A stretch of DNA of 36,287 bases from an uncultured Candidatus Saccharibacteria bacterium (GTDB taxonomy: Bacteria > Patescibacteriota > Saccharimonadia > Saccharimonadales > UBA4665), in NCBI GenBank assembly GCA_964560755.1, contig CAZLLY010000004.1, positions 1 through 36,287 of the forward strand. Reading direction: 5' to 3'. The notes under the pieces are model-generated. The model saw only the letters and a program-made list of their open reading frames with translations, had not been told where the DNA came from and made no database searches. Positions 14,462 to 22,771 of the stretch are shown one piece after another (the stretch's first letter is position 1; every line of letters begins with the position of its first letter). A program made the position numbers and the translations under genes.

Positions 14462-15667
14462 ATGGCGACATATAAAGTTCTGCAGGATATCGAGGCAGAG
14501 GACAAGCTCGTTGGTCCTCTGACGCTCTGGCAATTTATCTATTTTCTCGGTGCAGCTCTCTGCGTCTATTTGGGTGCAATATCGGTACTAAAAGGTGTGC
14601 CATTCTTTCTAATATTTCTCGCACCTGTTGCGCTGTTTTTAGGGTTTCTGGCAATACCATGGGGCGGCGAGCAGCCAACTGAGGTTTGGGCGCTAGCAAA
14701 ACTCCGGTTTTTCTTGAAGCCTCGCCGACGCGTCTGGGACCAGGCGGGAATGACCGAATTGGTTACCGTAACAGCGCCAAAGCAAATCGAACGTGTTTTT
14801 ACTGATGGGCTCAGCCAAACAGAGGTGAAGAGTCGTTTGCACGCACTTGCAAGCACGCTCGACAGCCGAGGTTGGGCAGTCAAAAACGTCAATATCAATA
14901 TGGTTTCTGCTGCACCATCTTATTCTGCATCTGACAGGCTCATCGATGTGTCTTCGGGTGGTGCTGAAGTTCCTGCCGTCGACATCAAACCAGACGATGA
15001 CATCCTGGACGAGAGCGCAAACCCCATCGCCCACACCTTTGACACCATGATCGATCGGGCGGCAAGCGAATATAGAAAAGCCCTCGTCGACCGAATGAAC
15101 CAGCCGCTTCCTTCGTCGGGACATCAGAGCCCTTCGGCAGGGTTTGGTTTACCTACGAGCGAACCGGTCGCAGAGCAAACACAACCAATTCAAACCCCGA
15201 CCCAAGATGCCTCGCAGCCTACAGCTGCACCCGGTTTTTGGTTCACTTCGCAGCCAACTGCCCAGACCGACACCCCAGCCATAGATACACCCGACCCATC
15301 ATCAACAGATGACACTGCAAGCATCCCCCATGCGGGGGAACCGACCGACGAGGAAAAGGCCTTGCTTTCTCATTTGAAAGATGAAGAGTCGCAACAGACC
15401 GCAGTATACGGCCACTTAAAGACACTGAAAACTCCCGAACAAATCGAGGAAGAAGAGCGTGAGACGGCCGCTCAACAGGCTGAGATAGAGCGACAAAAAC
15501 AAGCCGCAGAGGCCGAGAGACGAGCGGCGGAAGCGGCCATGACATCAGAGAAACAGGCTGCTATAATAAACTTAAGCCGTACCAACGATTTCAATATCGA
15601 CACTATTGCGAGACAAGCCAAACAAGAGTTAGCTAACGATGATGAAGTAGTGGTACCGCTGCGATGA
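14462..15667 (+). CDS. PrgI-family (VirB3-like) T4SS membrane protein with a long low-complexity/coiled-coil C-terminal extension
   Basis: This is a 401-aa ORF. The N-terminus MATYKVLQDIEAEDKLVGPLTLWQFIYFLGAALCVYLG followed by a second TM helix matches my recollection of the PrgI family pattern (YxVPxxIxxEDKIxGxLTxRQ), which is normally about 120-150 aa. Here it is extended by a P/T/Q/S-rich region and an E/A/Q/R coiled coil. It sits immediately upstream of VirB4, as VirB3 genes do. Confidence 0.6.
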   Translation: MATYKVLQDIEAEDKLVGPLTLWQFIYFLGAALCVYLGAISVLKGVPFFLIFLAPVALFLGFLAIPWGGEQPTEVWALAKLRFFLKPRRRVWDQAGMTELVTVTAPKQIERVFTDGLSQTEVKSRLHALASTLDSRGWAVKNVNINMVSAAPSYSASDRLIDVSSGGAEVPAVDIKPDDDILDESANPIAHTFDTMIDRAASEYRKALVDRMNQPLPSSGHQSPSAGFGLPTSEPVAEQTQPIQTPTQDASQPTAAPGFWFTSQPTAQTDTPAIDTPDPSSTDDTASIPHAGEPTDEEKALLSHLKDEESQQTAVYGHLKTLKTPEQIEEEERETAAQQAEIERQKQAAEAERRAAEAAMTSEKQAAIINLSRTNDFNIDTIARQAKQELANDDEVVVPLR

Positions 15668-15704
15668 ATAACCAGATAATGACAGGCGGACAGGTGGAAA
15701 CCGT

Positions 15705-16571
15705 ATGAACCCAAACCAACAGCAATACTCTGGCATGCCAGCACCAGGTACTGGCCCGCAGCTCGCGCCACCTCCCGTGCAGTATGCCGCGCCCCCGACG
15801 GCGGCGCAACCAGGACAGGCACCTCCAACTCCTCAGCCAAAAACCAACCCCAACAGCACACAAAACACACTGCAAATAGCAGAAATACGCGATGGTATCG
15901 TTATTATGAATGACGGGTCATTTCGAGCGGTTGTTATGGCAAAAAGTATCAACTTTGACCTGATGAGCCCCCAAGAACAGGAAAGTGTTGAGTACGCCTA
16001 CCAAGGGTTTTTGAACTCATTGTATTTCCCCGTGCAGATATTTTTGCGGTCACAAAAAGTCGACCTGCAGCCATATATCGAAAAACTAGACAAAATCCGA
16101 ACCGAACATGACAATATGCTGCTCGCGATGCTCATGGAAGACTACATAAACTATATCGACCAGCTCGCTATGCAGACGAATATCATGGATAAGCGGTTTT
16201 ACATTGTGGTACCGTATTTTCCTGTCGCTGGGCCAGAGCTCGCGACGAGTCAGAATAAAAACTTCTTTAGCGGTTTGATGGGACTTTTCCAGAACAAAGA
16301 GAGCCATGTCGTGATAAATGACGCCGAGCTAGAAAAAACCAAAACCGAGCTGCGAAACCGCGTTCAGGCCGTACTTGGTGGTTTGCAGCCGTGTGGCGTT
16401 CAGGGGTTACCACTCGACACCCAGGAGCTCATCGAGCTATATTACGACACGTACAACCCCGACACAGCAACCAGACAACAGCTGAAAAACTTTAACGACC
16501 TTACCGCAGATGTCGTCACAAAGGGGCAAGGAATGGCGCAACAAGCACATTTGCAGAGGGAGATGCAGTAA
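15705..16571 (+). CDS. Protein resembling the detached N-terminal domain of VirB4/TrbE/CagE, preceded by a P/Q-rich segment
   Basis: This is a 288-aa ORF. The first roughly 55 aa are P/Q/A-rich. They are followed by LQIAEIRDGIVIMNDGSFRAVVMAKSINFDLMSPQEQESVEYAYQGFLNSLYFPVQIFLRSQKVDLQPYIEKL...RFYIVVPYFP...LPLDTQELIELYYDTYNP. This follows the pattern I associate with the first roughly 200 aa of VirB4-family proteins. Its stop TAA overlaps the ATG of the VirB4 ATPase ORF (TAATG), and AGGTGGA provides an RBS. Confidence 0.45.
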   Translation: MNPNQQQYSGMPAPGTGPQLAPPPVQYAAPPTAAQPGQAPPTPQPKTNPNSTQNTLQIAEIRDGIVIMNDGSFRAVVMAKSINFDLMSPQEQESVEYAYQGFLNSLYFPVQIFLRSQKVDLQPYIEKLDKIRTEHDNMLLAMLMEDYINYIDQLAMQTNIMDKRFYIVVPYFPVAGPELATSQNKNFFSGLMGLFQNKESHVVINDAELEKTKTELRNRVQAVLGGLQPCGVQGLPLDTQELIELYYDTYNPDTATRQQLKNFNDLTADVVTKGQGMAQQAHLQREMQ

Positions 16572-18484
16572 TGGCCAAGCAAAAACTCGACCCAGTGGCA
16601 GTAGCCCAACAGCAGCAAGCCCGCGAACAAGCAGAGGTTGCGGAGGCATTTCGTAAAGGCGTCACCGCCCTTCGAGATTTCATCGCACCAAGTAGCATCG
16701 ACTTTTTTGGCAACTATTTCCAGATTGGCACCCGTTTTGCCCGCACTTACTACGTCTACGGCTATCCAAGGCAAATTTTTACCGGTTGGCTCAGCGGGCT
16801 CGTCAACCTCGACGAAGTCATCGACATTTCTATTTATGTATATCCTGTTGAGAGCCAGGTCGTGCTCGACAACCTACGCAAAAAAGTAACTCAGCTCGAG
16901 GCCGGTCTACAGATCGATGCAGAAAAAGGCCGCGTGCGCGACCCCGCCAAACAGGCTGCCATCCTCGATGCCGAAGAAATGCGCGACAAACTACAGGTCG
17001 GAGAAGAGCGATTCTTCCGTTTTGGGCTGTACTTTACCATCTACGGAAACAGCCTCGAGGAGCTCGAGTTCATCACACACAAGGTTGAGAGTATGCTGGG
17101 CCAACAACTTGTTTACAGCAAGCCAGCGACCAGCCAACAAGAGCAGGGACTAAACAGTGTCGTCCCTCAGATGACCGACCAATTACAGATTAGACGCAAC
17201 ATGAGCACCGGCGCTATTAGTACAAGTTTTCCGTTTACAAGCGCCGACCTGACCCAAGAAAACGGCATTTTGTACGGCATAAATATGCATAACAGTGGCC
17301 TCGTCATCTTTGACCGGTTTACCCTAGAAAACGGCAACTCGGTTGTTTTTGCAAAGTCTGGCGCGGGTAAATCTTTCACCGTAAAACTCGAGGCGCTCCG
17401 TAGCCTGATGTTTGGCACTGAGATAATCATCATCGACCCAGAAAATGAATACGAGCGGATGTGCGACGCAGTCGGTGGTGCATATGTTCGCCTGAGTCTC
17501 AACAGCACGACGCGCATAAACCCCTTCGATCTGCCAAAAGTCGTCGATACCGAAGAGGCAGATAACGCGCTTCGATCAAACCTTATCACCCTACACGGGC
17601 TACTCAGGCTCATGATGGGCGGCGCACAGGCACAGATGATGGGCGGTAATTCGATGGTTATGCCTGCGCTTGCTCCAAGTGAAGAGGCCGACCTCGACGA
17701 GGCACTCATAAACACCTACGGCAAAGCGGGGATTACACAGGACCCTCTGACACACACCGGCATGCCGCCAACCATTAGCGACCTCTATGACACCCTCCTG
17801 CATATGGGAGGAAATGGGCCGCAACTCGCTCAGCGCCTCAGAAAATACACCAGCGGTACGTTTGCGGGTATATTCAGCCAGCAAAGCAATATAGACATCA
17901 ATAATCCACTCGTTGTTTTTAACGTACGCGACCTCGAGGATGAGCTACGCCCCGTTGCGATGTATATTGTCCTAAACTACATCTGGAACAAGACAAAGAG
18001 CGACCAAAAGCGCCGCATCCTGATCGTCGACGAGGCTTGGCAGCTCATGAAGTACGAAGATAGCGCAAATTTCCTGTTTAGTTTGGCAAAACGCGCTCGC
18101 AAATATAACCTCGGTATTACCACCATCACCCAAGACGTCGAAGACTTTATGGGTAGCCGAATGGGTCGAGCCATCGTCGCTAATGCCAGCATGCAAATTC
18201 TACTCAAGCAATCACCAAGCGCCATCGACGTATTGTCAGACGTATTCAAGCTAACAAGCGAGGAAAAAAAGCGTCTGGCGCAGTTCCCGGTCGGCCAAGG
18301 CTTGTTTTTTGCTGGGCAAAATCACGTCCATATTCAAGTCATCGCCAGCCCAACCGAAACCAGCCTTATTACGACTAACCCTGGGCAGATTCAGGCTATG
18401 CAGCAAGGTGACCTCAACCAGCCGCAGGGCACCATAGACTTAAACAACCAGCTTACGCCTGGTAGTATGAATAATTTCTCATGA
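16571..18484 (+). CDS. virB4: VirB4-family T4SS ATPase (middle domain + AAA ATPase domain)
   Basis: This is a 637-aa ORF. The stretch FIAPSSIDFFGNYFQIGTRFARTYYVYGYPRQIFTGWLSGLVNLDEVIDISIYVYP is typical of the VirB4 middle region. Walker A is FAKSGAGKSFTVK and Walker B is RRILIVDEAWQLM. At 637 aa it is shorter than typical VirB4 proteins of about 780-830 aa. Confidence 0.85.
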   Translation: MAKQKLDPVAVAQQQQAREQAEVAEAFRKGVTALRDFIAPSSIDFFGNYFQIGTRFARTYYVYGYPRQIFTGWLSGLVNLDEVIDISIYVYPVESQVVLDNLRKKVTQLEAGLQIDAEKGRVRDPAKQAAILDAEEMRDKLQVGEERFFRFGLYFTIYGNSLEELEFITHKVESMLGQQLVYSKPATSQQEQGLNSVVPQMTDQLQIRRNMSTGAISTSFPFTSADLTQENGILYGINMHNSGLVIFDRFTLENGNSVVFAKSGAGKSFTVKLEALRSLMFGTEIIIIDPENEYERMCDAVGGAYVRLSLNSTTRINPFDLPKVVDTEEADNALRSNLITLHGLLRLMMGGAQAQMMGGNSMVMPALAPSEEADLDEALINTYGKAGITQDPLTHTGMPPTISDLYDTLLHMGGNGPQLAQRLRKYTSGTFAGIFSQQSNIDINNPLVVFNVRDLEDELRPVAMYIVLNYIWNKTKSDQKRRILIVDEAWQLMKYEDSANFLFSLAKRARKYNLGITTITQDVEDFMGSRMGRAIVANASMQILLKQSPSAIDVLSDVFKLTSEEKKRLAQFPVGQGLFFAGQNHVHIQVIASPTETSLITTNPGQIQAMQQGDLNQPQGTIDLNNQLTPGSMNNFS

Positions 18485-18494
18485 GGAGTGTAGT

Positions 18495-21446
18495 GTGTCT
18501 ACGTTGTTAGATAATGATACAGACAGACAGAACGGGGTGTACGACAGCGACGCCGACATCGCTCGCCGCGAGCGTGGTATAAGCGCCGCCCAAGACGGAG
18601 CGCCGACTGATGCAATTGACATGTCTGCGTTCGAGCAAGACTTCGCGGGAAACAACGGCAGCGACAACGGTAGCAGTAACGGAGGAGGCGAAGATCCAGA
18701 AAAAAAAGCGGCTGAGGGATATGATTCTGCAGAATCCCCCTGGAAAACAAGTCTGGACGGTTCGCAGCCCGGAAAAAAACAGTCAAAAATAAAGATGTTC
18801 ATGAAAAAGCGGACAACATCCTTCGTTGCCGGCACCGTACTCTTTGGGATCATACTCGGCGGCGGAGCAGTAATACCAACACTAGAATCGTTTCACCTCA
18901 TACACTATGCCGAGACTCTCAAAAAGATACTTGCGCCAAGAACCGTACAAAAAAATACAAAAATTACAAAGCTGTATCGATGGATTCGTAACCCAGATGA
19001 CGTTGGTCGAACTCGGCTTACCATACTCCAAAACAGAAACCACCCAAAGCTTATTAAAAGCCTAACAGCTAGTGGGATCACTGTAGTTTCCGATGGAAGA
19101 TTAGGATATATGAGAGCGATCTCAATCGATCCCAGGAAACTCCCCAAATATAAAGGGCTTACCATGGAGGCGCTAAAATATCGGCTCGCCGAAGATTATG
19201 GCATTCCAAGATCGAAAATCACCGGTTCGGAAGGGGGGAACGCACGAGCCCTCATTGACTCTGTTCCGCAAAAAATCCAGAGGCAGATTATTGCAGATAT
19301 GGTCGAGTCAAGCGGGAAAGGTAAGGTGGGAGCGTTTTTCATGCAAAGACATCTTCGCAACTACTATAAAGTACCGACAATGTTTCACCCATTTAGAAGG
19401 CTTGAGGCCAAGCTAGAAGGCAAGATAAACACATGGCTTATAAATGCAGAGAAAAAACGGCAAAAAGTCCTCTCGGAGCGCAGGGAGCAAGCTAGGCAAA
19501 AACTAAAAGAGTTTCGAGCCAACCATGGTAGTGCGCTCAGAACGGTTGGTGCAAGCTTAATGATAGTAGGGTTTGCGTGTATGGTTCGAGATTTTTCAGC
19601 AGATATATCCGAACTAAACAGGGCAAACTTTATTGAGCCGGGTGCGATGTCCGGTAACGATGCCCTCGGTATGGGGGACCAGATTGAGGCAGATACCGAC
19701 CTTAATGACTTAAACGTTACCGCAGCTGTGTCGAATTTTTATGATTCAAAAGGGTTATCCCCACTTGACGCACCAGAGTTCAAAACACTGAACGGAACCT
19801 ACAACTATACTTCACTCAATACCGGTGACACCACCTACGACGATGCATATACTTCAGGCAGGAAACTACTCGTAAACGGATTCAGCTATGACAGCCCCAT
19901 AAAAGCAGCTGCTCGGTTTGTCAACGAAAAACTCGCCGGTGAGGCAATATGTAACCCTGTGGCACAAGCAGTCCAGCTCGCCATCGGAACCGCCCTATTT
20001 GTTGTTTCCGCACCCTCTGGTGGTGCGCTCGTTATCGGCGTTGCAAAAGGAGTTGTAGCCGGAGCAATTATAGGGGTCGGCATGAATGCCGCTGCACAAT
20101 GGGTAGCTGGTGAAGTGCCCGATATTACCCCTCACAAGGGCCCCTTGGGGGGTGCCCAGGACGTATACGGTCTCATCACCTCCTCTAATGCGGTAAATGC
20201 CTCGGGGGGTGGCAGTTTTCTGTCTACTCAGGCAACGACCGACCTCATGTACGCCGCCGCACAAAATGAAGCGCGTGAAATAAAATCTCAAAGCATTGCT
20301 AGTCGGCTATTTAACCCCAAAAGCTACAGCTCCATCTCGGGGAAAATTATAGATGGTATTAGCCCAAGTAGTACAAAAAATCTTGCCACACTCTCAAGCT
20401 CGTTTGCATCAATAGGCAGTACTCTCATTTCCTTGCCATCAAAACTATTTAGTGCTAGAGCTAGTGCGGCAGACTCCACAAACTATATCAGCGCCCTGAA
20501 TACTAGACTCGTGGGATTATCGCCAACCGTTGAGGCTATCGAAAACCCCGACAAGAGCGCCAATGAGCTAGCGGGGATATTTAAGTCGGCAGATCCGATT
20601 ACCCTCAACAACTACAAGACGAAAACAATGACCTGTACTGGCCGCGATATAGGCTTCCAGACAGACGCATCAACCGGGACAGAGTACCTCGACGCAAAAT
20701 ACTCTACGCTGCCAGACTTATATTCAGACACCTATGCGACCGCTGGGTGTGCTGACGACGGGGACAAAACATGGGTTATGATAAAAGATTTTATCGACAG
20801 TGTGCAGGCTTCAGATGAACTGTATTGCCTCGATACTTACATAAAGGATTCCGAAGCGTGCGACCACGGGGGGATGGGTTCGAACGCGTCTACTGTCGCA
20901 CCATCTCCTGCACCCGAGGCCGGATCTGGCGCCATAGGACCGGCAACGCTCCCAAGGGCGCAGGGTAGTTGGGGTGGGTATATAAACGGCAAACTAGGTG
21001 GGTCGGGGTCAGAAGACTATAAAAAAGTCTTGAAACCCATATCATCTGTCGGTCTTAAAGGTTGCAGCGGAAGCATCAGCGTGCCATATCTGCATCCTAA
21101 CGCCGCAGTGGCCGTAAAAGCACTCGATGACGCGTACACCAAGAAGTTTGGCTATGGACTCATATTTGAAAGCTGTTATCGAACGTACGATCAACAACAA
21201 ACGGCCTGGAGTAGGTATCAAAGTGGGGGAAATAAAGCCGCTAGACCAGGAACCTCAAACCACGGTTGGGGCCTAGCGATAGACGTTGCCATGACAAAAT
21301 ATGGTGGCTTTAGCTCACCAAATTACAAATGGTTGGCAGAAAACGGACCAAGCTTTGGGTTTAGAACGGGCGTTGTGAGCGGCGAACCATGGCACATCGA
21401 GTACGCCCGTCCAGTATCAGCAGAAAGCGAGACCAGTAGCTTATGA
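18495..21446 (+). CDS. Large membrane protein with a C-terminal M15B/VanY-type D-Ala-D-Ala carboxypeptidase-family domain
   Basis: This 983-aa ORF starts at a GTG, with GAGGAG 5 nt upstream. The N-terminus is acidic and G/S/N-rich. TM helices include TTSFVAGTVLFGIILGGGAVI, LRTVGASLMIVGFACMV and a glycine-rich hydrophobic block, IGTALFVVSAPSGGALVIGVAKGVVAGAIIGVGM. The C-terminus (nt about 21057-21420) reads SCYRTYDQQ...ARPGTSNHGWGLAIDV...GEPWHIEY, matching the SxxRxxxxQ / SxHxxGxAxD / EPWH pattern of VanY-family zinc peptidases. Confidence 0.75.
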   Translation: MSTLLDNDTDRQNGVYDSDADIARRERGISAAQDGAPTDAIDMSAFEQDFAGNNGSDNGSSNGGGEDPEKKAAEGYDSAESPWKTSLDGSQPGKKQSKIKMFMKKRTTSFVAGTVLFGIILGGGAVIPTLESFHLIHYAETLKKILAPRTVQKNTKITKLYRWIRNPDDVGRTRLTILQNRNHPKLIKSLTASGITVVSDGRLGYMRAISIDPRKLPKYKGLTMEALKYRLAEDYGIPRSKITGSEGGNARALIDSVPQKIQRQIIADMVESSGKGKVGAFFMQRHLRNYYKVPTMFHPFRRLEAKLEGKINTWLINAEKKRQKVLSERREQARQKLKEFRANHGSALRTVGASLMIVGFACMVRDFSADISELNRANFIEPGAMSGNDALGMGDQIEADTDLNDLNVTAAVSNFYDSKGLSPLDAPEFKTLNGTYNYTSLNTGDTTYDDAYTSGRKLLVNGFSYDSPIKAAARFVNEKLAGEAICNPVAQAVQLAIGTALFVVSAPSGGALVIGVAKGVVAGAIIGVGMNAAAQWVAGEVPDITPHKGPLGGAQDVYGLITSSNAVNASGGGSFLSTQATTDLMYAAAQNEAREIKSQSIASRLFNPKSYSSISGKIIDGISPSSTKNLATLSSSFASIGSTLISLPSKLFSARASAADSTNYISALNTRLVGLSPTVEAIENPDKSANELAGIFKSADPITLNNYKTKTMTCTGRDIGFQTDASTGTEYLDAKYSTLPDLYSDTYATAGCADDGDKTWVMIKDFIDSVQASDELYCLDTYIKDSEACDHGGMGSNASTVAPSPAPEAGSGAIGPATLPRAQGSWGGYINGKLGGSGSEDYKKVLKPISSVGLKGCSGSISVPYLHPNAAVAVKALDDAYTKKFGYGLIFESCYRTYDQQQTAWSRYQSGGNKAARPGTSNHGWGLAIDVAMTKYGGFSSPNYKWLAENGPSFGFRTGVVSGEPWHIEYARPVSAESETSSL

Positions 21447-22771
21447 GTATTTCCCGCGGAAGCTTGTTGATCTCGGCTCGGTTCTCATTAGTTTTATTCC
21501 TGTGTTTGATAGTATTACTTTCACCATTATCGAGTGTCGTATATGCGCTTTCAGACGAACAATACAATGTCATAAGTAAAGGCATATATGCGTTCGACGT
21601 CGATATACCAAGCTGCGTCACATCGACCGATCAAGCATATATCGACCAGCTGGGGTCTTCGGACACAGGCGTTCCGTCTGCAGATGTCAAAGAATGGGTT
21701 GAAAAATATGGTAAACAGGCCTACGAGACTGGCCAGAAATATCACCTTCCTTACGTTGCAATTCTTGCTCAGGCAGCGCTCGAATCGGGATGGGGAAGGT
21801 CTGGGCTCACGAGAAAAGCAAACAATTTCTTCGGAATCAAGGCGGGAAGTTCTTGGGATGGTGAGGTTGTGTATATGGACACCGGAGAACAAACTAAGAC
21901 AGGTGAATCATACACTCAAAAAGGCGCCGCTTTTCGTAAGTACCCAACAGCGCAAGATGGATTTGACGGGTATGGGAAGTTCATAACCGAGAATAGCCGC
22001 TACAAAAAAGCACTTGCTTATCCAAACGACCCTGCAAAATATATCTCTGAGATAAAGGCGGCAGGATATGCAACCGATGTTAAATATGTCAGTAAAAACG
22101 TCAGCCTCCAACAAAAAATTGAGTCACATATTGTCTCACTGAATAACCCTTCGTTACCTGCGTCAAAAAACGTAGTGTTTTCCACGCCTAACCCAGTTGC
22201 TTCTGGGGGTACCGACGGTACAAGTACCCCTACGGATAGTTGTTCGGTCACTAACCCCGAAACACCTGGTGGGGCAGTAACGATCGTAGGTGATAAAGCA
22301 TTTCCCCTCGCAGTCTCAAGCAGAAAAGAAGTGTTGAACCCCAAATCATACAGCAACAGCACTGTGCACGTAACGTACAAGGCGAATGACATTCTCGCAA
22401 AAAAAGGAACGAGGGTTGTTGCGATGGTTGGGGGCAAAATAAGGGTTTCTCCGAACACCGACGCGTGTAGCACACGGTTCGTACAGATATATAACCCGAC
22501 TAGCAATATTACCGTCACAAACATGCACCTTAGCGGTGATATAGCCGTGAAGTCAGGGGAGACTGTTACGGCCGGTGCTGCGATCGGCTACATAACCCCA
22601 GGAGTTAACAAGCCTGGGTATAGTGGGGGTTGTGGCGTTTCACATCTACATATCGACGCCGTAAAGGGGCAAAAGCGCCCCAGTTGCTCAAGAATGGGAT
22701 GTAGTAACTCGTCGGTTTTCGTCAGCCTAGGCGACGAACTCACTAAACTCTATAACGCTCTGCCGAAATAG
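21443..22771 (+). CDS. Secreted bifunctional cell-wall hydrolase: N-acetylglucosaminidase (FlgJ/LytD-type) domain + M23/LytM-like domain
   Basis: This 442-aa ORF overlaps the previous gene by 4 nt (ATGA). It starts with a signal/anchor segment (LISARFSLVLFLCLIVLLSPLSSVVYA). The glucosaminidase motif is AILAQAALESGWGRSGLTRKANNFFGIKAG (nt about 21690-22100). The C-terminal M23-like region is GTRVVAMVGGKI...VKSGETVTAGAAIGYI...GGCGVSHLHID (nt about 22295-22735). The expected first HxxxD zinc motif appears as YKAND. Confidence 0.75.
   Translation: MSISRGSLLISARFSLVLFLCLIVLLSPLSSVVYALSDEQYNVISKGIYAFDVDIPSCVTSTDQAYIDQLGSSDTGVPSADVKEWVEKYGKQAYETGQKYHLPYVAILAQAALESGWGRSGLTRKANNFFGIKAGSSWDGEVVYMDTGEQTKTGESYTQKGAAFRKYPTAQDGFDGYGKFITENSRYKKALAYPNDPAKYISEIKAAGYATDVKYVSKNVSLQQKIESHIVSLNNPSLPASKNVVFSTPNPVASGGTDGTSTPTDSCSVTNPETPGGAVTIVGDKAFPLAVSSRKEVLNPKSYSNSTVHVTYKANDILAKKGTRVVAMVGGKIRVSPNTDACSTRFVQIYNPTSNITVTNMHLSGDIAVKSGETVTAGAAIGYITPGVNKPGYSGGCGVSHLHIDAVKGQKRPSCSRMGCSNSSVFVSLGDELTKLYNALPK

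Follow-up and report, generated by a model that had tools for sequence, protein, structure and literature searches.

A TrsD-family protein of a Candidatus Saccharibacteria genome probably corresponds to the N-terminal part that is missing from the VirB4 ATPase encoded downstream

Two adjacent genes in a genome of Candidatus Saccharibacteria, here called ORF1 and ORF2, encode complementary, non-overlapping parts of a full-length VirB4. Our best explanation, which we hold with considerable confidence, is that ORF1 is a protein of the TrsD family (Pfam 'TraC-like', PF26593), i.e. the first half of the VirB4 N-terminal domain (NTD) made as a polypeptide of its own, and that its gene directly precedes that of a VirB4 ATPase with a shortened N-terminus, ORF2. 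Both genes would be part of a chromosomal, origin-proximal, MPF-FATA-type type IV secretion system (T4SS). The arrangement has already been published, and the locus represents an ordinary case of it, not a new kind of split. The features of the window, that is, the whole stretch of 36,287 nucleotides analysed, are collected in Table 1.

Table 1. Features of the gene pair and its upstream neighbour, in window coordinates.
Feature	Position	Strand	Basis
PrgI-family (VirB3-like) membrane protein, 401 aa	14462-15667	+	Pfam PF12666 PrgI, residues 5-92, E 6.4e-8
AGGTGGA, Shine-Dalgarno-like	15692-15698	+	6 nt 5' of ORF1 ATG, read from sequence
ORF1, 288 aa	15705-16571	+	
P/Q-rich head, ORF1 residues 1-50	15705-15854	+	Composition; predicted disordered
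TrsD / Pfam 'TraC-like' domain, ORF1 residues 51-268	15855-16508	+	AF2 model, structure and profile matches
Junction: GGGAG (16558-16562), ORF1 stop TAA (16569-16571), ORF2 ATG (16571-16573)	16558-16573	+	Read from sequence
ORF2, 637 aa	16571-18484	+	
ORF2 residues 1-226: short leader and second half of VirB4 NTD	16571-17248	+	Profile, alignment, fused-homologue model
ORF2 residues 227-637: VirB4 C-terminal ATPase (motor) domain and short tail	17249-18484	+	phmmer, Pfam, motifs

The sequence-only reading that preceded this analysis had described two ORFs joined by a TAATG overlap, and their positions are confirmed by the sequence. As one base is common to the ORF1 stop codon and the ORF2 start codon, the two frames differ. 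The gene of the PrgI-family protein, which has a long, low-complexity and coiled-coil tail, is the first of a PrgI-TrsD-VirB4 triplet, and the Shine-Dalgarno-like sequence that follows it supports translation of the proline/glutamine (P/Q)-rich head of ORF1 from 15705. As for the translational coupling also proposed by that reading, the junction itself is favourable, with GGGAG 8 nt upstream of the ORF2 ATG, but the 1-nt overlap is kept in only 46 of 86 related Saccharibacteria loci, most of the others having spacers of up to 211 nt. With a spacer between the genes in about 40% of related loci, the pair does not depend on coupling by way of the overlap; judging from the sequence, such coupling is plausible here, although not universal among related loci. 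In all 86 loci, the small ORF1-type gene is adjacent to the ORF2-type gene and directly upstream of it.

The homology of ORF1 with the VirB4 N-terminus, first proposed from the sequence, is upheld by structure, by profiles and by natural fusions. The folded domain was modelled by AF2 with a mean pLDDT of 82.5, and residues 51-268 of the model superpose on residues 15-212 of TrwK/VirB4, i.e. they adopt the fold of the first half of the NTD. In a wide VIA-align search, 7o42_A (TrwK/VirB4) ranked first, with Z 9.2, an rmsd of 3.4 Å and 171 aligned residues. Foldseek, suggested beforehand as a check, returned TrwK/VirB4 chains at all of ranks 1-11 (best E 7e-4). The identity between ORF1 and TrwK in the structural alignments is about 11-13%. 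Profile matches of ORF1 are weak when taken alone (E 1.6e-6 to 1e-2, all far under the curated cut-offs): residues 53-166 match positions 2-116 of the 752 of the CD1110-family model, and the match to VirB4_plasma covers positions 99-233. The best NCBIfam match is TrsD/TraD NF041427 (E 1.6e-6, residues 52-169 against positions 15-142 of 201), with 28.1 bits against a curated cut-off of 200, so that ORF1 is not a member by NCBI's threshold. ORF1 is thus a distant relative of the staphylococcal TrsD prototype. Scanned locally with Pfam, ORF1 matched no family, even at a threshold of E 10, because PF26593 is absent from the Pfam copy that was used. A precomputed PF26593 match exists for P0001, the database protein identical to ORF1, and 99-100% of the nearest Atlas clusters carry PF26593 'TraC-like' (score 0.97). 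A phmmer search of ORF1 against PDB sequences yielded chance matches only, driven largely by the P-rich head.

This head, also pointed out in the sequence-only reading, is real. Residues 1-51 of ORF1 comprise 45% P+Q and 86% P/Q/A/G/S/T/N, have no predicted secondary structure and reach block pLDDT values of 47-75 in the AF2 model. A comparable head is found in 120 of the 120 nearest protein clusters (20-127 aa, median 61, with a median P+Q content of 39%), many of these heads having in common MNPNQQxY-like and KTNPNS end motifs. In other classes of the phylum, the matches start at about residue 45 of ORF1 and mostly lie in open frames that are about 230-290 aa long, and the fused VirB4 homologues described below have no such P/Q-rich head. 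It is a conserved, probably disordered extension of Saccharibacteria type, which might serve as a tether or spacer in these homologues.

ORF2 is a VirB4 ATPase that lacks the beginning of the protein. Its motor domain carries the Walker A (GAGKS) and Walker B (IVDEAW) motifs in translation, residues 227-601 match the VirB4 C-terminal domain of T. pseudethanolicus (4AG5; phmmer, E 2.1e-49), and Pfam reports P-loop_TraG, AAA_10 and DUF87. ORF2 also exceeds the cut-off of the CD1110 family (NF045971, 367.8 against 325 bits, E 1.1e-109) and is the only match of this type in the genome. It is short for a VirB4, as had been noted at the outset: residues 15-588 cover positions 169-734 of the 752 of the CD1110-family model, and the coverage is 292-893 of 894 for VirB4_plasma and 238-732 of 792 for TIGR00929. 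A complete NTD is not found within ORF2, CD1110-family positions 1-168 being uncovered and the equivalent of TrwK 15-212 residing in ORF1.

That the two ORFs together make up a full-length VirB4 holds true, as indicated by the complementary CD1110-family coverage and by alignments to P0124, a natural fusion of 899 aa. ORF1 residues 52-271 align to its residues 15-229 with 40% identity, and ORF2 residues 13-610 to its residues 308-890 with 51% identity. Residues 331-899 of the P0124 model in turn align to TrwK 217-823 (Z 24-28). The break thus falls between TrwK residues ~212 and ~217, and the classical NTD spans TrwK 15-400. A split at the boundary between the membrane-proximal and motor domains, as initially proposed, is not borne out: the break is in the middle of the NTD, and ORF2 keeps the second half of the NTD along with the motor. 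In the AF2 model of P0124, the domains are confident and the linker (residues 226-310) is disordered; the pTM of this single-chain model is 0.48, and the first half is not placed confidently against the rest. As that half does not superpose on TrwK together with the rest, the model is silent on how the parts pack.

Homologues in which both parts form one protein of ~900 aa amount to about 69 protein clusters, some of them named Berkelbacteria. In a FastTree phylogeny rooted on a single long branch, the fused forms are a single clade nested among split forms, their parts re-joined via a disordered, P/A-rich linker. P0122 (711 aa) is a natural fusion between PrgI and TrsD, which aligns to residues 1-141 of the PrgI protein of the window with 37% identity. 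We did not retain P0121 as a true ORF1-ORF2 fusion: with its garbled junction and truncated end, it was treated as a frameshifted gene call in a metagenome-assembled genome (MAG). P0311 (582 aa), which is 94% identical to fused forms, is either a true split or has a mis-called start, and P0343 is identical to the fused P0316 over 570 aligned columns and is therefore most likely an internal-start call.

The split is natural, as the sequence-only reading proposed, and it is not unusual. Among the 86 related Saccharibacteria loci, none has both parts in one frame. ORF1 matches occur in 38 of 41 relatives and in 384 of 401 genomes sampled across the phylum (a sample that includes one unpublished genome, G194); among the 150 phylum matches listed, all are in separate open frames of at most 422 aa. 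Over 8000 protein clusters with lengths of about 260-350 aa belong to the ORF1 family, and among the best 150 of its 2393 representatives at 50% identity, only one is fused. The arrangement is standard in Patescibacteria and on many Firmicutes plasmids, and was published as 'TrsD next to virB4' (PMC12102498). As the two-gene state is found on Firmicutes plasmids as well as throughout the phylum, it is likely to be an inherited trait of the system rather than one born in this genome.

In the work of Quiñonero-Coronel et al. (2025, Microb Genom; PMC12102498), TrsD ranks first in abundance among the T4SS components of Patescibacteria, adjoins virB4 and shows a remote homology to the VirB4 N-terminus. 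The protein is reported there to be essential in Southlakia (S. epibionticum). Saccharibacteria cannot grow as epibionts without their T4SS (Wang et al. 2023, Cell, PMC10633639), and SEML1_0009 (293 aa), encoded between PrgI and a 612-aa VirB4, was scored essential (PMC10633639 Table S1). The pairs published in Patescibacteria, including SEML1_0009 and SEML1_0008 of Ca. Southlakia epibionticum ML1, have the same order as the window (PrgI, a protein of ~290 aa, a VirB4 of ~610-640 aa), and we see no substantive difference between them and our locus. The 1-nt overlap, the chromosomal location near dnaA and the lack of a detected coupling protein are likewise common to the Southlakia/Patescibacteria T4SS and the window. 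The word TrsD is absent from the main text of Guglielmini et al. 2014, and the remote homology is accordingly cited after PMC12102498. That article neither maps the break on a VirB4 structure nor gives a description of the P/Q-rich head, and no VirB3-VirB4 fusions are reported in it. The PrgI-TrsD fusion and the clade of fused TrsD-VirB4 proteins found in this analysis go beyond that work.

Staphylococcal plasmids of the pGO1/pSK41 type (MPF-FATA), with TrsD/TraD and TrsE/TraE, and related Firmicutes plasmids also encode a small protein directly upstream of a VirB4-like ATPase of ~620 aa, with a large peptidoglycan hydrolase after it. Examples are a Planococcus plasmid pair ('TrsD' of 345 aa and a DUF87 protein of 624 aa) and a Pontibacillus plasmid pair (275 aa and a CD1110-family protein of 622 aa). 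Unlike the locus of the window, in whose genome VirD4 was not found, the pGO1/pSK41-type systems are conjugative or mobilizable, and the plasmid homologues are only 23-31% identical to ORF1. Full-length VirB4 proteins (TrwK of R388, PDB 7O41/7O42/8RTB; CD1110 family) have the whole fold that ORF1 and ORF2 reproduce, but in one polypeptide rather than in two with a break inside the NTD. In the crenarchaeal Ced DNA-import system, CedB and CedD carry VirB4-like NTD parts on two products proposed to act together (PMC11868833); however, these are paralogues with an ATPase domain in each, whereas here only one product has an ATPase domain and the second consists of half an NTD alone. Finally, the VirB3-VirB4 fusions of some conjugative systems, cited in PMC12102498, show that gene boundaries near the VirB4 N-terminus are plastic in evolution. 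P0122 is their analogue within the TrsD family, although such fusions go in the opposite direction (joining, not separation), the window having three separate genes.

Full-length VirB4 might be the later fusion of a TrsD-like gene and a HerA-like ATPase, the locus of the window being 'never fused' rather than 'split', a scenario that we consider possible but rather unlikely. It would agree with the occurrence of the two-gene layout in Patescibacteria, on plasmids of Firmicutes and, in at least one record, on an actinobacterial plasmid, with ORF1-like sequences on haloarchaeal plasmids, with the derived appearance of the only fused Patescibacteria clade and with the different VirB4-like NTD parts of archaeal CedB and CedD (PMC11868833). 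Nevertheless, TrsD is present in the pGO1 subclass only among the MPF-FATA prototypes (PMC12102498), and full-length VirB4 is the rule among the profiles and structures that we examined, the VirB4-family models having 752-894 positions and TrwK 823 residues.

We find it quite improbable that ORF1 shares no more than an old fold with the VirB4 N-terminus and works apart from the ATPase, e.g. as a chaperone-like or substrate-binding protein, with ORF2 as a VirB4 that is short by nature and does without this domain. The ORF1 fold also matches a chain of the type VII ESX-5 pore complex and type III secretion chaperones with Z 5-7, likenesses that in our view reflect a common alpha/beta arrangement and no kinship, and TrsD does not adjoin virB4 in Gracilibacteria (PMC12102498). 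However, the TrwK match stands out from these other folds (Z 9.2 versus 7.3, with 171 versus 103 aligned residues), the two ORFs complement each other exactly in their coverage of VirB4, which breaks at TrwK 212/217, a whole clade joins both parts in canonical order with 40-51% identity to ORF1 and ORF2, and the genes adjoin in every one of the 86 loci. As for a stop codon created by a sequencing or assembly error within a single VirB4 gene of ~900 aa, we reject it as next to impossible: although ORF1 and ORF2 differ by a single frame shift at their 1-nt overlap and artefacts such as P0121 (564 aa, an apparent read-through fusion) do occur in MAGs, independent contigs from the runs of another study cross the junction without gaps (X5 record 7, 16434-16767; X6 record 8, 16300-16638), none of the 86 related loci is fused and many have spacers of 22-211 nt, the listed phylum matches are all in separate short frames, and the two genes also exist separately in cultivated S. 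epibionticum. The X10 sequence, probably DNA, covers only 16300-16348.

Given TrsD as the first NTD half, homology with R388, for which the NTD limits and contact residues have been described (PMC9259494), allows a mechanism to be sketched. TrsD would dock non-covalently on the second NTD half carried by ORF2 and might thereby complete the membrane-proximal face of the ATPase. By the same analogy, ORF2 would bear most of the VirB3/PrgI-binding surface, equivalent to TrwK 248-394, and TrsD the surface for the N-terminal tail of VirB8 (TrwK 17-38, 149-165 and 180-217), along with a minor VirB3 contact; a protein with these two contacts would probably be an adaptor between the motor and its membrane partners. 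The TAATG overlap and the internal Shine-Dalgarno sequence would favour roughly equal synthesis of ORF1 and ORF2.

Placing TrsD on the VirB4 structure, at TrwK 15-212, gives it a concrete and testable role, and the rare TrsD-VirB4 fusions, some of them named Berkelbacteria, together with the PrgI-TrsD fusion, support a three-way assembly of PrgI, TrsD and VirB4. It is tempting to go one step further, although we deem this unlikely, and to envisage the TrsD half-NTD as a stoichiometrically independent adaptor, more than a piece of VirB4. In R388, the docking surface for the VirB8 tail is used by the 'outside' VirB4 subunits only. Saccharibacteria have no known VirB8 homologue (PMC12102498); as none is detectable, a membrane or pilus partner other than VirB8 could be recruited by this surface together with the P/Q-rich head. 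If TrsD were such an adaptor, Patescibacteria and pGO1-type systems could build a VirB4 assembly with TrsD on some subunits only, and the ORF1/ORF2 pair would be a natural tool to dissect the roles of the two NTD halves.

ORF1, a TrsD-family protein, is followed by ORF2, an N-terminally short VirB4 ATPase, and four independent lines of evidence (profiles, fused homologues, structure and database annotation) agree that ORF1 is the VirB4 N-terminal part lacking from ORF2, as the sequence-only reading had proposed. ORF2 covers positions 169-734 of 752 in the CD1110-family VirB4 model (367.8 bits, above the cut-off), 292-893 of 894 in VirB4_plasma and 238-732 of 792 in TIGR00929. ORF1 gives weak matches at the complementary N-terminal positions of these models (2-116, 99-233 and 19-131, respectively), and its best profile match is the TrsD/TraD model (E 1.6e-6). 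The two parts are found as single proteins in about 69 clusters of 806-910 aa, most of them 850-910 aa (P0124, P0125, P0209 and P0276-P0342), some of which are named Berkelbacteria or Patescibacteria. Residues 52-271 of ORF1 align with residues 15-229 of the fused protein P0124 at 40% identity, and residues 13-610 of ORF2 with its residues 308-890 at 51%. Between the TrsD and ATPase parts, the fused proteins have a P/A-rich linker, predicted by modelling to be disordered. As for annotation, a database protein identical to ORF1 carries Pfam PF26593, a family that the Atlas calls 'TraC-like'.

Features of the VirB4 region in the window
Feature	Coordinates	Strand	Length	Remarks
PrgI-family (VirB3-like) protein	14462..15667		401 aa	upstream of ORF1; Pfam PF12666
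ORF1	15705..16571	+	288 aa	
ORF2	16571..18484	+	637 aa	
Two overlapping genes, three peptidoglycan-hydrolase domains	18495-22771			downstream of virB4

Modelling of ORF1 with AF2 from 106 sequences gave a mean pLDDT of 82.5, with the head unstructured. Among 48,161 PDB chains, the best match to this model is TrwK, the VirB4 of plasmid R388 (Z 9.2), with residues 51-268 superposing on chain residues 15-212 (rmsd 3.4 Å over 171 residues), and the top 11 Foldseek matches are all TrwK chains. From residue 331 on, the model of a fused homologue matches TrwK 217-823 (Z 24-28), and its residues 524-879 match the C-terminal domain (CTD) of T. pseudethanolicus VirB4 (Z 40.6). R388 VirB4 has its N-terminal domain (NTD) in residues 15-400 and its CTD from about 400 onwards (PMC9259494). 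On these models, the break maps to mid-NTD, between TrwK residues ~212 and ~217. The boundary initially assumed, between the membrane-proximal domain and the motor, is therefore wrong, because ORF2 retains both the second NTD half (residues ~36-226) and the motor (227-601). The CTD crystallised from T. pseudethanolicus VirB4 (PDB 4AG5/4AG6) covers residues 210-588 of that protein's own numbering, and this classic structural model thus seems to be a 'short' ORF2-type VirB4 itself.

The split is natural. Of 41 relatives, 38 have an ORF1 match, as do 384 of the 401 genomes sampled in the phylum (383 of 400 without the unpublished G194); all 150 of the ORF1 matches listed are in open frames of at most 422 aa. 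More than 8000 protein clusters have a length similar to that of ORF1, and only one fused protein is found in the best 150 of the 2393 representatives at 50% identity that match ORF1. In the window, the last A of the ORF1 stop codon TAA (16569-16571) is the first base of the ORF2 ATG, and the two ORFs are therefore in different reading frames. The motifs AGGTGGA and GGGAG are found 6 nt 5' of the ORF1 start and 8 nt 5' of the ORF2 start, respectively. At each of 86 Saccharibacteria loci, the ORF1 homologue has the ATPase gene directly after it, and the two are never in one frame (0/86). The same 1-nt overlap is found in only 46 of these loci; gaps of 0-4 nt are present in 11, overlaps of 8-59 nt in 3 and spacers of 22-211 nt in 26. 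The stop/start overlap is thus frequent, yet not obligatory. An assembly error at the junction is ruled out by contigs from runs of another study, which bridge it without gaps, by the separate frames of all 150 listed matches in the phylum and by the absence of fusions at the 86 loci.

A tblastn search with the ORF1 core yielded matches on 432 plasmids, mostly of Bacillus and other Firmicutes, with some of haloarchaea. One of them, a 345-aa protein annotated 'TrsD' on a Planococcus plasmid, precedes a 624-aa DUF87 ATPase and then an M23 peptidase. In Pontibacillus, a plasmid encodes an ORF1-like protein of 275 aa that overlaps a 622-aa 'CD1110 family' VirB4, after which comes a large peptidoglycan hydrolase. 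As the same two-gene layout exists on Firmicutes plasmids, it was probably inherited with an MPF-FATA-type system. In the region 4980-6650 of L094, a Haloarcula pelagica plasmid, a hypothetical protein of 557 aa begins with the match and precedes a protein of 762 aa, which points to a further domain arrangement on haloarchaeal plasmids. A FastTree phylogeny of the ATPase parts places the fused forms in a single well-supported clade lying within the split forms; the two 'split' members of this clade (P0311 and P0343) are probably gene calls from internal starts. The fusion would then be secondary, although the tree is a quick one rooted on one long branch. Another type of natural fusion is P0122 (711 aa), in which a PrgI/VirB3-like N-terminus and a TrsD domain are joined by a long Q/M/P-rich linker. 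It is the equivalent of a VirB3-VirB4 fusion, with the detached VirB4 half-NTD; a survey of Patescibacteria reported no VirB3-VirB4 fusions (PMC12102498).

The presence of polA, recF, dnaN and dnaA nearby places the T4SS cluster on the chromosome, close to the origin. A position close to dnaA has been reported before, as has the fact that most clusters lack a relaxase (PMC12102498, PMC10633639). Downstream of virB4, a 983-aa protein has a C-terminal VanY/M15 peptidase, and the next gene codes for glucosaminidase and M23 domains; the plasmid homologues likewise have a large hydrolase directly after virB4. The genome (1.18 Mb, 95.5% complete) harbours a single VirB4 locus, no match to the VirD4 family PF02534 and no second ORF1-like gene. 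Six relatives (G008, G020, G023, G031, G032 and G039) have a second, divergent ORF1-like gene elsewhere (~30% identity, open frame of ~212-230 aa), which may be part of a second, mobile-element T4SS. Related loci come from Candidatus Saccharibacteria or Saccharimonadales MAGs, among others, and the sequencing runs containing the locus are wastewater and sludge metagenomes.

The initial description of the ORFs, their overlap and the P/Q-rich head of ORF1 was accurate, since all agree with the sequence (45% P+Q in residues 1-51). Such a head is present in all 120 nearest clusters (20-127 aa, median 61; median P+Q 39%), with recurrent MNPNQQxY-like and KTNPNS end motifs in many. In other classes of the phylum, matches begin near query residue 45, and most of them are in open frames of ~230-290 aa. 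The head is absent from the fused forms, and the Q/M/P-rich stretch of P0122 is a linker between domains. The best reading of the head is as a disordered spacer or tether, characteristic of Saccharibacteria-type homologues. A comparable low-complexity feature is the tail of the PrgI-like protein. Of this protein, only residues 5-92 match the PrgI model, after which come a P/T/Q/S-rich stretch and then a charged coiled-coil-like helix.

The arrangement is not unusual, as had been thought, but already published. TrsD is the most abundant T4SS component of Patescibacteria, with 2,272 homologues, 1,664 of them associated with virB4; it shows remote homology to the N-terminal part of VirB4; in MPF-FATA systems it occurs in the pGO1 subclass only, and it is essential in Ca. 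Southlakia epibionticum ML1 (Quiñonero-Coronel et al. 2025, PMC12102498). In that strain, SEML1_0009 (882 nt) lies between the genes for PrgI (SEML1_0010) and a 612-aa VirB4 (SEML1_0008), has one base in common with the latter and was scored essential (Wang et al. 2023, PMC10633639, Table S1). The locus thus exemplifies a known arrangement, and the sequence-only reading holds in substance but not for the position of the break or the rarity of the arrangement. Our analysis adds the mapping of the break on structure, the fused clade, the PrgI-TrsD fusion and the description of the head.

In R388, VirB3 wraps round the VirB4 NTD, and 29 of the 30 top VirB3-VirB4 pairs in the co-evolution/contact table are in TrwK 251-390, which is equivalent to ORF2; few, lower-ranked pairs are in the ORF1-equivalent segments 9-19 and 54-65 (PMC9259494). 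The VirB4-VirB8tails pairs examined from the same source are nearly all in TrwK 17-38, 149-165 and 180-217, all equivalent to ORF1. No VirB8 homologue was detected in S. epibionticum (PMC12102498). From the distribution of these contacts, we propose by analogy that TrsD would dock on the NTD half retained by ORF2 and complete the membrane-proximal face, bearing the surface bound by the VirB8 tails in R388. PrgI would mainly contact ORF2 and also touch TrsD, and the natural PrgI-TrsD fusion P0122 fits such a three-way PrgI/TrsD/VirB4 assembly.
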